Shown one piece after another: positions 53,272-60,517 of a stretch of 64,000 bases of DNA. The stretch is from Trichinella spiralis. Taxonomy: Eukaryota. A model generated the notes under the pieces. The model was not told where the DNA came from and did no database searches. It worked only from the letters and a program-made list of their open reading frames with translations. The translations under genes were made by a program, and so were the position numbers. The stretch lies in contig NW_003526941.1 of the NCBI RefSeq assembly GCF_000181795.1, forward strand, positions 5,826,099-5,890,098, read 5' to 3'. Every line of letters starts with the position of its first letter. The stretch's first letter is position 1.

Positions 53272-55032
53272 ATGTTGAATGTAATTTGTACAAGGTGTCG
53301 GTTTCATTTGTACCGGTGTTTTTCAAAAGTAAATTACATCGATCGACAGCCTAACAGCCTCACTGAGTTGGGTTATTTCAATGCATCTGTCGGACGATTG
53401 TTGGAGAAATCGCTGGGGTTGAATATCACACACTCATTCGATTGCGATTTGAAAGCGCTCGAGAAAAAATTATCCAAAATATCTGATTTGAATAATTTTC
53501 GAACTTTAGTACCTGAATTAATCCAGTGTGGAAATCAATTTCCATCGGAAGCGTGGTCTTTGTTCGGAGACAGGGTCGTTGGCTATATAGAAACAGCGAT
53601 CGACCGAGTTGACAGTGATGAAGAACTTTCTCGATGGTTGTTACTAATTGCTTATTATTTATCCCCTTCTGATCAACGCTGGTCAACATGTTGTTCCCAT
53701 CTGAGTGAGAACATCGAACGTATTAGCGACGATGCTTTTCTGTGCCTTGTCCACGCATTTATGCTTCGTAGAAGCATTCCGAATAGTATTTTTCCAATTT
53801 TAGATATGCAAATTCGACGTCGTCTGGGCAAATTTTCTTTCGATGATTTGGGATTGATATCGCTCGCTTATTTCAAATGCTGTCGACGATTCCAACACGG
53901 TCACGTTGGGCGCTACTTGGCTGTGCGTTTGGAAAGTCAGTTGACAGCCGTGAATGAACTGCAAAACGTGCCTGTAGCAGCTGTACTCAAACAGCTTCGC
54001 TACGTCCAACAAGGCGACTTGAGCAATTTGTTGCCAGGTATATTGAAACGATTCGCTGAACTGCCATCAAGTAGTTTAAAATTAATAACTTGGATTCATG
54101 CTGCTTATTTTGCCACAAAGTTGTGCTTGTTCGACGAGAATTTTACGAAATCACTTTTCGACAAAGTTCGTGCTAGCAAAGGGGAAATTCGTGCGAAAGA
54201 TGCTTCGGTTTTACTTCATTATTTGGCTATTTTCGATCACAGTGCTGACGGTATGGATCAATTTTTGGTGAACATTTTTCAAACTGATCCAGATGTCATC
54301 AGAAGCGTGATCAAATTTCCAGAAACACTGACATCAGCTTTACGATCAGCGGTCATAAGAGGCTTGTATCCGGTGGAATTGATCGACAGTTGCTTTTCGT
54401 CAGAGTTCATCAGTCGCTTCACAAAACGTCACTATTTTCCATTTTTGGATTATTATTTTCTAGATTGTTCAATGGCAATCGAGAAATCAAATTCTGGACC
54501 AAGGCTGGATTTTAAATATCTGCCGAACATTTCCAAAAATAAAAGCAGCGACATGTACACAGGTATCGACAATGACAGTGTTTATAAAAAAATTCATTGT
54601 CACATCGCAAATGCAGTTGGAAAACGTTTGCGATGTTCCACTGCAGCGGTGCAGTTTTGTCGAATACTTCCGCATTCGTTTGCTCTCGATACTGTCATCA
54701 GATTTCGTGATGGAAATTTCGACATGACCAAGCTACAGTATGAGATCAAAGCTTACAACAAAGAAGAGTTGCTTGTGCCAGCTGATGAGATCCGGATTGT
54801 TTTGTTTGTAGAGCATAATAATCGTTGTCGTTTGCACACGCAAATTCCTCTTGGTCATGTTCAAGCCAGGAAACGGCAAGCGATTCAGCTTGGTTACAAA
54901 GTGATCGAGTTGAACGGCTATGAAATAGCTAGACGACCATTGAATGATGTCGAAACAACCCAGCTGGTCAATGTCATCCAACAGTTTTGTAACAGTAAAG
55001 TCAAATCATCTTCAATAGTACGTGCATTTTGA
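53272..55032 (+). CDS. FAST kinase domain/RAP-domain mitochondrial RNA-processing protein (FASTKD5-like), intronless
   Basis: Basic presequence-like N-terminus, helical repeats (LGLISLAYFK, IRAKDA, GLYPVELI), C-terminal RAP-like PLGHVQARKRQAIQLGYKVIEL. Confidence 0.75.
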   Translation: MLNVICTRCRFHLYRCFSKVNYIDRQPNSLTELGYFNASVGRLLEKSLGLNITHSFDCDLKALEKKLSKISDLNNFRTLVPELIQCGNQFPSEAWSLFGDRVVGYIETAIDRVDSDEELSRWLLLIAYYLSPSDQRWSTCCSHLSENIERISDDAFLCLVHAFMLRRSIPNSIFPILDMQIRRRLGKFSFDDLGLISLAYFKCCRRFQHGHVGRYLAVRLESQLTAVNELQNVPVAAVLKQLRYVQQGDLSNLLPGILKRFAELPSSSLKLITWIHAAYFATKLCLFDENFTKSLFDKVRASKGEIRAKDASVLLHYLAIFDHSADGMDQFLVNIFQTDPDVIRSVIKFPETLTSALRSAVIRGLYPVELIDSCFSSEFISRFTKRHYFPFLDYYFLDCSMAIEKSNSGPRLDFKYLPNISKNKSSDMYTGIDNDSVYKKIHCHIANAVGKRLRCSTAAVQFCRILPHSFALDTVIRFRDGNFDMTKLQYEIKAYNKEELLVPADEIRIVLFVEHNNRCRLHTQIPLGHVQARKRQAIQLGYKVIELNGYEIARRPLNDVETTQLVNVIQQFCNSKVKSSSIVRAF

Positions 55033-55575
55033 ACATAATATCGTTTGATAATAAAAAATAAACTTTCCTTATTCTTTATAAGCAAGCACACTTATATTTT
55101 ATACATTATTTAATGATCTTATTTTTAATTGTATTTTATTTACTAATCTGATGAAAATTGAAAGCTTTACCCATTCACATGAACTTGACCGTCGGAAAAT
55201 CTTATGGTAGAAATTGACAACGGTACAATGAAATCGACTTCAGGATTGCACAGTCAGAACAAACTAGTTACTTCAAACTTGCATTTTTACTGAAATCTTT
55301 GTTCATTATTGAATTGATGTAAGCATATTTCTTTAATGCAATTTACTAATACTTTTTATCTTTTCTATTTCAACAAAAAACAAAATAGGCATTCTAATTT
55401 ATTGCTTGTAAAATACAATTTGAATTCATCCGATACTACATATATACAAAATTCTAGTAGTTTATTGTTGAAATATGAATCGAGGCACTGTTCTCTTTTC
55501 GTAAGCATGTTTCTAAAAAAATAAAACATTAAATAATTACGAATAAAGATAAAACAATTAGTTAGTTATATTAAA

Positions 55576-55644
55576 TGTATCAGCATTTATTATTCAACAA
55601 GACCATTCAGGCGAAAGATGGTAAACAATTCATCATAGACTACA
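55576..55644 (-). ncRNA. Box C/D snoRNA, predicted guide for 28S rRNA Am (yeast Am807; snR39/snR59 and U32/U51 site)
   Basis: Box C ATGATGA (55636-55630), D' CTGA (55610-55607), C'-like TTGTTGA, box D CTGA (55583-55580), terminal TGTA/TACA stem. Guide TTTACCATCTTTCG is complementary to the conserved LSU sequence CGAAAGAUGGUGAA. Confidence 0.88.
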
Positions 55645-55799
55645 GTAAACAAAAGCTAATGCAAACAAAATTATCTTACTAAATTATCTTCGCAAATTCT
55701 TCAGCAGGTCTTTGAGTCTAAAAAATAATCTATCTCAAAAAGTAATAATTGAACTTATTATAAGCTTCACAATAAAACATATTATAATCAGAAAGTAAG

Positions 55800-56084
55800 T
55801 GCTGCTTGGTTACAGAGTAGTCTGAATTGAGTTTTAGGAGAAGCCATCGCACTTAGCACTGCCAGTCGTGAAAAATTCTCAATTGCATCAACCCCGTCTC
55901 AGCCAAACTGGCGTCGTGGACATTTTGTAGAGTTATGCAATACTTTTTCTGGTTCCTTCACGTGCATTTACTACACTTCCCGTCTCGGGAATGAAGTGAC
56001 TTTATCTCAGACCTTCCCAGGAGTGAAGAAGAGCGACAAGCGCTCTTTTGTGACTCCTTAAGCTTCCTTGTCCCCAAGCAGACA
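55800..56084 (-). ncRNA. RPPH1: Nuclear RNase P RNA (~285 nt)
   Basis: CR-I GGGAAGGTCTGAGA (56018-56005), CR-V ACTCAATTCAGACTA (55832-55818), P4 GGTCTGA/TCAGACT, P1 CTGCTTGG/CCAAGCAG, P2 GAAGCT/GGCTTC, P3 hairpin AGGAGT..AGAGCG/CGCTCT..ACTCCT, CR-II AGAAA, P12 ATTGCAT/ATGCAAT, CR-III TGAGA. Confidence 0.93.
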
Positions 56085-56613
56085 ACGTCATAACATTCAT
56101 CATCGATATCAGAATTGAAAACTATGTCACACTAAAAACACTGCTTACCTAATAAAAGCGACCGATCACCAGCATCGCAGTCACATAATGATGCCACATT
56201 TCACAACTGATGAATGACAGTATTCAATAAACTTGAATATCATTATCTTTCAAAGCATTAATGGACGCATAAGAAAGCACCCAAAAATAAAATTTTATAG
56301 TTAATAAAATAAAATTTTTATATTTTATAATATTGTTTGTTTTTTAACTATTACAATAAAGCTGATTATTTGTTACTATTTTACGTTTAATTGCTTATTT
56401 TCATTAAAAGGGAATGAATGTAAAGCGCTATCTTGAAAATAAAATTGCAAATATTTTTTTATAAATTTAAAATTGTTCTACTATGAAAATTTTATTTTGT
56501 AATCTTTCCATTTTTATTTATTTATTTCCTGCGCTCATTTAATTTACTGTTACAGTAATACAACGGGTGAACGAACGATATATGATATTGAATGGCAGTG
56601 TGCAGTCTCACCA

Positions 56614-58365
56614 ATGTTTTTTTCACGGAAAAAAAAGTCTGCTTCGTCTTCAAAACTTCACTCTTCTCCAGATGCAGGCGCTGTCCATGGTATCACATCA
56701 TTGCCTCAAAATTTGCGTATGAAGTTCAAAAGAGGTGTGAACTACAACAGTAAGTTAGTTGTCAATTACAATGTGTATTTACATTTTTTACGTAGAAAAT
56801 TTACAATAATTTCATTTCACGAATTGTCTTTTTTCATGATATGAATATCATTCATTGGTTCTATTTTGGTGTTTGAAAACGAAGCATTTATTGTTTTGGT
56901 AATTTGCTTAGATTGTTGTAGTGAAAATTTTACTCCGTGGCGATCGAAATGTTGGTAAATCGTGCCTTCTGCGACGTTTGCAAGGTGGTCCTTTTATTGG
57001 ACAGTACATCCCGACTGAAGAAATTCAAGTTGCCAGTGTAGAATGGAGTTATAAAACTCGTGATGATGTCATTAAAGTTGACATTTGGGATGTTGTGGAC
57101 CGTAGTAGAAAGAAAACTAGAAATGTGGACAATTTGAAGATAACAAATGATTCAGTTGAGGTAATTTTTTCTACTTTCTCAATGTGATATTTTACTGATT
57201 ATTTCAGATCGTTGAACCGTCATTAGATGCGTCATTTATTGACGTTTACCAAGGCGCGCATGGAGTGGTGCTGATGTTCGATGTTACTAAACCTTGGTAA
57301 AAATAAGATTTTTTGTTCTTCTTATTTCAGATAAACTGTTTTTAATTTTTTAAAATTATTTTTAGGACATGGGATTATGTTAAAACAGAATTGCCCCGAA
57401 TTCCGTCCCACATTCCTGTTCTTGTGCTGGCCAATAAGCTTGATGTTCAAAGCGGACGCGAAGTAGCGGAAGATAGTTGTCGTCTGTTTTTATACGATTT
57501 TGCAAGGTTTTCTATACAAATGTCTTGTTAATAGTTGGATGCTTCATGCTATAATTTGCATACTTTTGCATCTCAGATCATCTCGATCTGCTGTAGTTCG
57601 TTATGGTGAGGCTTCAATGCGCAACGGGTTTGGTTTGAAATTGCTGCATTTGTTTTTCAATGTTCCATTTCTTCTTCTCGAAGTATGTATATGCATAACA
57701 TAAATATTACATATTCAAGTAAACTGTTTTTATTTTTAGCGACAGACACTTCAATCTCAGTTGGATCGAAACACCGAAGAGCTTGATGTTACAATTCAAG
57801 AAATTGATCTGTACGAACAATCACCCGATGGAAACTATTCAACGTAAATATTTAATTGTACAAACGTCGTCGGTTAGTAGACGTTATATTTTGCAGATTT
57901 TTGGAAACTAGAGTTCACGGTAGTAGAAAGTCAACCAGTAAGTTTGATTTTATTGTTTTTTTTTCATTTCACTTGTTTGCTTAATTGTTACATGCTGTAA
58001 CAGTTCATGCACATGAACTATGTGAGCAAGAACCGTGCCCGGTAAGGTCAGTTCCTTCAGTTACTACTGACACGTGCAATGCAGATGATTCTCTGCACGA
58101 GGCGACAAATGTTACTGTAAGCACTAGTGTTGCTGCTGCTGCTGCTGCTGTTACTACTGTGCAGGAAGAAGTGAATGATGATTTGCAGAATTCAGAATTG
58201 AACAACTGGCTAAATTGTGATTCTTCTGAAAAGATCGTTCCTAGTCAGGAACAATTTTATGAATCGGATGATTCAGATAGTCCTAATCCTATGGTTGCCC
58301 AGATTCCAGTCGATTCTTCGGACGAAGAAGAATCAATAGCGACAAGAAGAGAAACAAGAACATGA
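56614..58365 (+). CDS. RABL6: Rab-like protein 6 (RBEL1/PARF), multi-exon; 3' exon structure approximate
   Basis: [73 protein letters not shown], acidic tail with NPMV. Confidence 0.9.
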
Positions 58366-58536: not shown

Positions 58537-59359
58537 TCAAATGGGCTTGTAAAGCAACGTTGTGACGTACTTCTTCCGGAAACGGTGCGTTGCACTGAGT
58601 ACCATTACACCATCTTTTATGGACAAAGCGTACAAATGATTCAGCATGACGTGGTTCGGTTCGGGCAGAACGTTCGGATCACACGATATTGGCGTGTCTT
58701 TGTTGAGAATTACTTGCAGCAAATGTGGTGGCAATACAGGCGGTTGACTGTATTTGCGAAATACTGCTACTTCGGGAACTTCTTGTGTATACGAAGAGTT
58801 CCTGTGAAAACATTCTTCACAGCTGCTGGTGGAATTATCCGTAACCGATTCGGCTTGATCTCGGTCCAACGCGTCGAAAACTTCGTAATCAGACCGATCA
58901 ATGACCAGAACGTTGTTTTCAGAACCAAGCGGATTGTCCGTCTTTGGTAAATTGTTGTCACATATCCAATTGCCATCGACGTAAAATTTGAATTCGTGAC
59001 GCCCTTCCGGCAAATCGACTATGGTAATGAAATCTTCATGACTGCGAACCATCGGAAGCTTTTTCTTCCACCCATCCCAGCTGCCACCGAGACTTACGCA
59101 TTTCGCACTGCCTAACTTGAAACCGATTAAAATTGGTATTCAAAAAAAAGGCAATTCCCTACACACCTGTCCATTTGACAACGACAGGATAACCACCACG
59201 ATCTTTATGATTTGCATCCGCATACGTTTCGTTCTTAAGTCTGGAAATTTTCAATTGCACCGGGCATTGGTCATCGTCGGAATAATTGCCAGCTGCTTTA
59301 CGCACACTGCCATCAGATTCGTGTCGATCACGACGCTGTGAACCTTGAGTATTGCCCAT
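58537..59359 (-). CDS. PRKAB: AMP-activated protein kinase beta subunit; exons 59359-59167 and 59111-58537
   Basis: MGNT myristoylation motif, glycogen-binding domain (GSWDGW, LPEGRHEFKFYVDGNW), PPVLPPHLLQVILNKD, PEPNHVMLNHLYALSIKDGV, KKYVTTLLYKPI. Confidence 0.96.
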
Positions 59360-60517
59360 TAATCATCAATGTAACTGTATTTTTTCTCTAAAAGAAATAT
59401 AAAAAAATGCCTCAAAAATAAATAATCGAAATTTTTTTCAGGTATTGCAAACATTGAAAAAAGCCATCATCTACAATGCAGATGCAAACAGCCAGAAAGT
59501 GTCATCGCAAACACTCGTTTTAGAAGAATTAAGCGAAATACAACGTTTTATCTAAATGCAGTTTCAAAGGATGTAAGTATAAGAATATCGATCGATTTCA
59601 AGTAAACAATTTATTGCAGAGGAAGAATTTTACCAGCAACTGTTTAAATGGTGCAAAAGAAATGAAATTTCACTACTGCAAATCAGCAAAGTGCACATAT
59701 TGGACAATGGTTGCATCTGTGTCAAAGAAACAACTGCTATTATTGCGAAAAACAAATGAAAAACAATCATACTGTACAAGTATAAATTATCAAGTATTAA
59801 ATCGACAACGTCTCGCATTCTTCAATCGATTCTGCACGCGCTTTTCGTTTGGCTAATTTTCAACAATGTTTCCATTGTTGAACATCATGGCATAACGGTA
59901 AGTAATATAATTATTTTAAAAAATTTTCCACTTGATCATTTATTTGTACGCTGTTTGCATTGCAATCGAAAAGAGGAAGTGTAATATTGGTATTTTTGCT
60001 TTGCAATATTTGAAGTTGTTCGTTTTATTGCAATTGATACGTGAAAAGAATTTTCTCATTTTTTAAATTGCTTTTATAAGAGAGATATTTATTTTTCCAA
60101 CTATTCATGACGAATTCAGATCAGTTAGCAATATGGTAATTTTGCATTCGATCATTTTCATGCTCGTTGTTGCACGTTGCTTGAAAGCAACGCAGTGGAC
60201 GTGCAGAAAATAAATGCATTTGCCATTTGTTGATTTTAATTCCGTTTCAAAAAAAATGTATATATATCTAGAGAAAATTTCAAGGAGTCGTCCATTGTTT
60301 ACTAATTTTAAAAGTGCATTGGTGAATGTGCATGCCTTTCGTCACGCATATGCACGTTTGCATGAATAAGCATAAGTAAACTAGTTTGTTGACAAGTTCA
60401 TAAATTTCAGGTTGTAAATATGGGGTTAACGTTTCATAATTACTAGTTTTTCGTAAATGTAACTTCATCATTAGCATCAGTTTTGGTGAATGAGAATTTC
60501 CGCTAGTGTACTAAATA

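Follow-up and report, generated by a model that had tools for sequence, protein, structure and literature searches.

A nuclear RNase P RNA (RPR) of Trichinella spiralis is bracketed by a box C and a box D, and the layout of its locus suggests that an RNA of about 325 nt is released by splicing from the predicted first intron of a short non-coding host transcript, with its ends set by C/D snoRNP proteins. We assign this reading a probability of about 0.55. The C/D-bracketed RPR itself is a real feature of the window (the whole stretch of 64,000 nt that was analysed), well beyond what chance would produce, and the boxes being functional carries about three quarters of the weight across the readings considered.

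A complete RNase P RNA between box C and box D

A sequence-only reading of the window had described a full nuclear RNase P RNA on the minus strand and suggested a covariance search as a check. That search yields one copy of RF00009, at 56077-55806 on the minus strand (133.3 bits, E 3.8e-38 with the full model, against a gathering score of 28), and it is the sole Rfam match above gathering score within the 64-kb window. The match spans model positions 1-301, with P4 and the conserved regions present. Measured from P1 to P1, the RPR has 285 nt (55799..56083, minus strand), and its P1 helix, in which 56083-56074 is paired with 55809-55799, has a predicted energy of -19.5 kcal/mol.

On the same strand, box C (ATGATGA, 56097..56103) precedes P1 by a linker of 13 nt and box D (CTGA, 55788..55791) follows it after 7 nt. 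Both boxes stand exactly where the sequence-only reading had placed them, and its account of short linkers also stands, although the lengths of 12 and 8 nt that it gave are each one base off when the pairing of P1 is considered. All 11 box bases are perfect, and the 316 nt from box C through box D are occupied by a complete RPR. The terminal RUGAUGA and CUGA are able to form a kink-turn, as in intronic box C/D RNAs: in the kink-turn register the boxes read U.U, G-C, A-U, A-U, U.U, G-C, U-A, U.U, A-U, and after the opening U.U pair 6 of the 8 positions are pairable. Outside the boxes the terminal stem is weak, as had been noticed before, with 3 pairs in one of its best registers or 3+3 AU/GU pairs flanking a mismatch in another. 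The stable P1 helix could substitute for this stem in joining the two boxes, and a missing terminal stem is described elsewhere as replaceable by internal or flanking stems (PMC10557570).

To estimate how often such a bracket would arise by chance, a dummy unit of 285 nt was slid over both strands of the window, giving 120,684 positions. Box C and box D both fell within 20 nt of the unit at 124 of these positions and within 30 nt at 219 (0.10-0.18%). Minimum-free-energy folds model neither kink-turns nor P4 and were not counted as evidence. A methylation-guide role for the box D of the RPR was considered and rejected because only 7 nt are free between P1 and box D, compared with the antisense element of at least 10 nt that such a role requires. 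The RNA belongs to the nuclear RPR family, and within that family it would act like an intronic C/D RNA and not like a guide snoRNA.

A short non-coding host transcript

Contigs from 4 of the 24 listed runs (X10, X14, X16 and X18) were compared with the locus; none of the 24 is recorded as RNA, and X10 is taken as RNA-derived because it contains two splice joints. The contigs of X10, X18 and X14 outline a host transcript on the minus strand with an approximate extent of 55388..56178, or about 790 nt. Those of X10 and X18, which come from two studies, both terminate at 55388 and 56178 without any loose end, that of X14 covers the host from 55483 to 56155, and X16 (organism C) has no contig over the host. 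These two stops are a weak hint to the ends of the host, because where a contig ends is not proof of where a transcript ends, and the host is not covered by any DNA run. The minus strand is assigned to the host because both the splice joint of its second intron and an AATAAA lie on that strand; the latter (55398..55403), a candidate poly(A) signal, stands 10 nt before the contig end at 55388.

Splicing of intron 2 (55513..55679, minus strand, 167 nt) is seen directly in one of the four runs, where the X10 joint 55512/55680 skips these 167 nt with CT..AC on the plus strand. Downstream, exon 3 (55388..55512, minus strand) is spanned exactly by a single X10 record, record 3. Upstream, exon 2 (55680..55717, minus strand, 38 nt) takes its 3' edge from the same joint and its predicted 5' edge from the acceptor of the preceding intron. 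It is this preceding intron, the predicted intron 1 (55718..56148, minus strand, 431 nt), that contains the RPR. Its donor, AG/GTAAGC at 56148, lies 45 nt before box C, and its acceptor, TTTTTTAG, ends at 55718, which confirms the distance of 70 nt from box D to acceptor in the sequence-only reading; the donor, like the second snoRNA described below, is an addition to that reading. Both splice sites of intron 1 are consensus, as are those of the spliced intron 2. The predicted exon 1 (56149..56178, minus strand) extends from the contig end to the donor and measures 30 nt or slightly more. The longest ATG-started frame in the predicted spliced host of 193 nt has 40 codons, and a protein-coding host was rejected on this ground.

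A Ras/Rab-family GTPase gene on the opposite strand contains the entire host, in antisense orientation, within one of its introns, since a second X10 joint, 55318/56556, encloses 55388-56178 in a GT..AG intron of 1237 nt (55319..56555, plus strand). The identity of the GTPase follows from Pfam matches (Roc and Ras) in the exon at 56912 and from Rab matches. The gene extends over 55184-57187 on the plus strand, and we take it to be RABL6-like; its first detected exon (55184-55318) is likely untranslated, because it has stops in all three frames. Before it on the plus strand lies an uninterrupted frame of 585 codons (53275-55029) with no Pfam match, whose only database match is a Trichinella pseudospiralis protein with 84% identity. 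This relative is annotated within a 970-aa protein that also bears the phosphatase domains encoded by the gene upstream, and the annotation may be a gene model fused from two. On the other side, an AMPK beta-subunit gene occupies 58537-59362 on the minus strand, with Pfam AMPK1_CBM and AMPKBI on 58540-59139.

Intron 2 of the host carries a conventional short C/D snoRNA (55580..55636, minus strand), with box C at 55636-55630, a D' CTGA at 55610-55607 and box D at 55583-55580. It is very short, at 57 nt from box C through box D, and has a terminal stem of 4 bp. Its Rfam matches, all below gathering score, are snoMe28S-Am982 (25.9 bits, E 0.29), SNORD11, ceN70 and ceN109, and its ACCAUCUUUCG run is identical in the models of snoMe28S-Am982 and ceN70; the snoRNA likely guides methylation of 28S rRNA. 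The two introns resemble each other closely in their spacing. From donor to box C there are 45 nt in the RPR intron and 43 nt in intron 2, and from box D to acceptor there are 70 nt in the former, where the acceptor is predicted, and 67 nt in the latter, which is spliced. The RPR intron thus has its box D in the range of 60-80 nt upstream of the acceptor that is characteristic of intronic C/D RNAs. The window contains 38 RTGATGA words, of which just two, the box C of the RPR and that of the intron-2 snoRNA, have a donor 35-55 nt upstream together with a CTGA 60-80 nt before an acceptor, these distance windows having been set after the two cases were known. Elsewhere in the window, box C-like words occur in pairs with identical or near-identical flanks (11730/19483, 14525/26142, 16130/24537, 18647/22816 and 543/1174), some of them on opposite strands, which points to direct and inverted segmental repeats in its left half.

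The joint that removal of intron 1 would leave (56149/55717) was found in none of the four runs, and contigs of three of them (X10, X14 and X18) pass through intron 1 unspliced. These observations favour an alternative that we consider unlikely overall, in which the boxes are functional and intron 1 stays mostly unspliced; a host with a cap and a poly(A) tail would then be decapped or cut by an endonuclease and trimmed to the C/D complex to free the RPR, or the RPR would keep a capped 5' leader as in U3-type RNAs. The same alternative can draw on a possible pairing of 7 bp (-6.2 kcal/mol) on the minus strand between the linker from P1 to box D (55792-55803) and the intron's own donor (56144-56150), which could slow splicing or could be due to chance, and on the splicing-independent routes reported for Drosophila RPR reporters (PMC4287351, PMC6797745) and for SPA-lncRNAs (PMC10557570). 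It has to contend with consensus splice sites at both ends of intron 1, which agree with those of the spliced intron 2, with a spacing in intron 1 that mirrors intron 2, and with the difficulty of detecting an exon 1 of 30 nt in contigs. We give the absent joint little weight because this exon would, as we infer, be too short for an assembly word of 31 letters, and because X10, X14 and X18 run unspliced through intron 2 too. The RPR is joined to exon 2 on these same contigs, which continue to the poly(A) signal.

Conservation and a second case in metagenomes

The relatives compared at this locus are the near-identical X14 and X18, both too close to the window sequence for a test of box conservation. 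X18, the more informative of the two, differs from the window by 14 changed letters and 2 gaps in a contig of 789 nt. None of the changes falls in box C or box D, an outcome expected by chance with P = 0.82; three fall within the RPR, and the one at 56001 converts an A-U pair to a G-U pair.

With the conservation of the boxes unproven at this value of P, and with a terminal stem as weak as that of the RPR, the boxes might be leftovers of a snoRNA that the RPR displaced. The RPR would then be intronic and made by Pol II as in insects, and RNase P proteins would set its ends at P1. There is precedent for such protection: Pop1, Pop4, Rpp20 and Rpp25 protect the intronic RPR of Drosophila, so C/D boxes are not needed in principle for an intronic RPR (PMC6797745). 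We nevertheless judge it improbable that the boxes are relics, since 11 of 11 box bases are perfect even though the 7 unpaired nt before box D are too few for the usual guide, and since the bracket recurs, together with a clean terminal stem, in an unrelated RPR (L107).

L107 was obtained in a metagenome scan for a box C upstream of a P4 5' strand, which returned 119 loci from 8 of the 64 parts of the collection. Of these, L107 (128 bits) and L101 (122 bits) prove to be genuine RPRs, and the other 117 are chance matches without an RPR. Because the loci were selected for box C, the presence of this box in L107 and L101 is no evidence by itself. The features of L107 that were not selected are a CTGA after P1 and the 6-pair terminal stem that it closes, in register and directly against box C; a box D with at least 5 Watson-Crick pairs arises by chance in 0.034% of shuffles and in 0.2% of real segments. 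A GTAAGT stands 39 nt upstream of box C in L107. A T5 follows box D after 10 nt and could be a Pol III terminator, which would weaken the case for L107 being intronic; the available sequence stops 26 nt beyond box D. No match of linker to donor like that in the window was noticed by eye in L107. Its alignment to the window covers mainly conserved RPR motifs, and its fold has a z score of -1.8. L107 is good evidence that the C/D-bracketed RPR is a recurring design, and is not proof of homology.

In L101 there is no CTGA in the 41 nt of sequence after the core; a long helix extends P1 up towards box C, and the fold has a z score of -3.7. Upstream of their RPRs, both metagenome loci contain further words of this kind. 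L107 has an acceptor-like TTCCAG near 522, a candidate exon of 74 nt and CTGA at 603 and 585 (707-447, minus strand), and the CTGA at 585, 60 nt before the TTCCAG, possibly belongs to another intronic snoRNA in the same host. L101 has several box C-like words and a CTGA (687-400, minus strand), which suggest a snoRNA cluster. Pattern scans of viral contigs (70 loci) and of prokaryote genomes (46 loci) yielded RPRs at 0 of 116 loci.

Pol III signals

Simple patterns detect neither an A box nor a B box at the RPR locus. No TATA-like word is nearer to the RPR than 56299, and there is none 21-27 nt upstream; no T-run stands at the end of P1, and the nearest candidate, a T4 at 55777, is 22 nt downstream of it in a locus where runs of T4 or longer have a density of 2.5 per 100 nt. 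The sequence-only reading was correct on both the missing TATA and the missing T-run. That the RPR is an ordinary stand-alone Pol III gene, antisense in the GTPase intron and ending at this T4, is very improbable even though the centipede Strigamia has an antisense intronic RPR with Pol III signals and Nematoda are placed among the taxa with such signals (PMC4287351), because the promoter elements just named are lacking, the box pair and the splice-like sites would all have to be accidental (0.10-0.18% for the box pair), and contigs link the RPR to exon 2 and the poly(A) signal, although a contig over two genes is no proof of one transcript.

Proposed maturation and its significance

Release of the RPR by splicing, with C/D proteins at its ends, is thus the reading that we prefer, because of the spacing shared by the twin introns, the spliced host with its poly(A) signal, the rarity of the box pair and the occurrence of L107. 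The proposal of a snoRNP-capped, intron-released RPR had been made in the sequence-only reading; it now has a snoRNA-like context in the twin intron, the spliced host and L107, and the lack of an intron-1 joint in all four runs counts against it. What was observed is the RPR with its two boxes at their distances, the snoRNA in the next intron, a spliced intron 2 and one discrete transcript across the locus. Transcription by Pol II is inferred, and the later steps, namely release by splicing, binding of C/D proteins and trimming, are modelled on known pathways: C/D assembly and end protection that depend on position (PMC5519232), substitute stems (PMC10557570) and the trimming of the intronic RPR of Drosophila (PMC6797745).

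Under this proposal, Pol II would transcribe the host, starting at about 56180 and reaching a poly(A) site near 55388, and intron 1 would be spliced and debranched. The P1 helix would join box C and box D in place of the weak terminal stem, and the kink-turn formed in this way would be bound by Snu13, NOP58, NOP56 and fibrillarin. Xrn2 and the exosome would trim the debranched intron up to the C/D complex, and the resulting RNA would measure about 322-326 nt instead of 285 nt; mature C/D RNAs keep a few nt outside their boxes. Pop1 and the other RNase P proteins would assemble on the RPR core. The likely origin of such an arrangement would be an RPR copy that was inserted in an intronic snoRNA or replaced its interior, the ends being kept for processing and stability.

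We also put forward, as a tentative idea that is more probably wrong than right, that the active RNase P of these worms takes the form of a hybrid particle closed by a C/D kink-turn, with Snu13, NOP56, NOP58 and fibrillarin as lasting subunits, and that this design evolved separately at least once more among eukaryotes, in the lineage of L107, when an RPR moved into a snoRNA host intron. A C/D-dependent RPR would not be nematode-wide, because depletion of snoRNP proteins in C. elegans has a negligible effect on RNase P RNA (PMC2442092).

If the preferred reading is true, a ribozyme matures as a snoRNP, and tRNA processing is tied to the assembly pathway of C/D RNAs. The RPR would also have escaped from Pol III independently of the escape in insects and crustaceans, where the difference between Pol II and Pol III types has been described as a single ancient divide (PMC4287351). 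The arrangement suggests a route by which RPRs may move, since an RPR that lands inside an intronic snoRNA inherits a promoter, a release step and end protection. A length of about 325 nt as opposed to 285 nt, together with association with fibrillarin, is a sharp prediction that can be tested cheaply, and sets of eukaryotic genomes can be screened for the bracket.

Comparison with known systems

In the literature searched, from which subscription journals were largely absent, we found no description of a C/D-bracketed RPR or of a Trichinella RPR. The closest published arrangement is the intron-embedded, Pol II-dependent RPR of insects and crustaceans, a move said to be restricted to these two groups, with other animals including Nematoda being described as having the Pol III type (PMC4287351); in Drosophila, Rat1/Xrn2 and the exosome carry out the trimming of the intronic RPR, and RNase P proteins protect it (PMC6797745). 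The Trichinella RPR shares with these a position on the same strand as a spliced host, here given by the minus-strand joint of intron 2 and the minus-strand AATAAA, and in the preferred reading it would likewise need trimming at both ends (PMC4287351, PMC6797745). The RPRs of insects and crustaceans lack Pol III signals; at the Trichinella locus no positioned TATA, A box or B box was found, and a T4 lies 22 nt downstream of P1. It differs in that the hosts named for insects and crustaceans are protein-coding, RNase P proteins protect the RNA, and no C/D boxes are described on the RPR in the available portions of these papers, whereas the Trichinella RPR has a non-coding snoRNA host and a C/D bracket and belongs to a nematode (PMC4287351, PMC6797745). 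Membership of the insect-crustacean clade is contradicted by the flanking frame with its 84% identity to a Trichinella pseudospiralis protein. One source notes in passing that Caenorhabditis and Drosophila have intronic RNase P and MRP genes (PMC9849065).

Among enzyme RNAs other than RPR, the telomerase RNA of Trypanosoma brucei is comparable as a non-guide RNA that uses C/D boxes, and its C/D domain binds NOP58, with NOP56 and fibrillarin bound as well (PMC10061497). That RNA is a template for which binding has been demonstrated and no origin from an intronic snoRNA host is described in the available text, whereas the Trichinella RPR is a ribozyme for which C/D binding is predicted only (PMC10061497).

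In human C/D snoRNAs the favoured position is about 50 nt upstream of the branch point, and their assembly depends on splicing (PMC5519232). With intronic box C/D snoRNAs in non-coding hosts, the Trichinella locus shares one RNA per intron, short exons, a box D about 70 nt before the acceptor and, in the preferred reading, ends defined by the boxes (PMC5519232, PMC5033589). The two differ in what the boxes enclose, guide sequences in the snoRNAs and a complete ribozyme that fills 316 nt in Trichinella. GAS5/UHG is the type of such a non-coding snoRNA host gene. Composite scaRNAs, which combine C/D and H/ACA elements, also have a whole folded domain inside a C/D RNA (PMC5519232). Their extra domain is another modification guide, whereas that of the Trichinella RNA is a catalytic RNA with its own protein set. 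U85 is an example of a composite scaRNA.

Sno-lncRNAs and SPA-lncRNAs provide a further parallel, since their snoRNP ends protect a passenger RNA; they have one or two complete snoRNAs at their ends, whereas in Trichinella the passenger sits between the two halves of one C/D pair (PMC10557570). An identity as a sno-lncRNA was accordingly rejected, the RPR having just a box C before it and a box D after it, and no complete snoRNA at each end. The C/D-bracketed RPR unites two known themes, the intronic ribozyme and the borrowed snoRNP ends.
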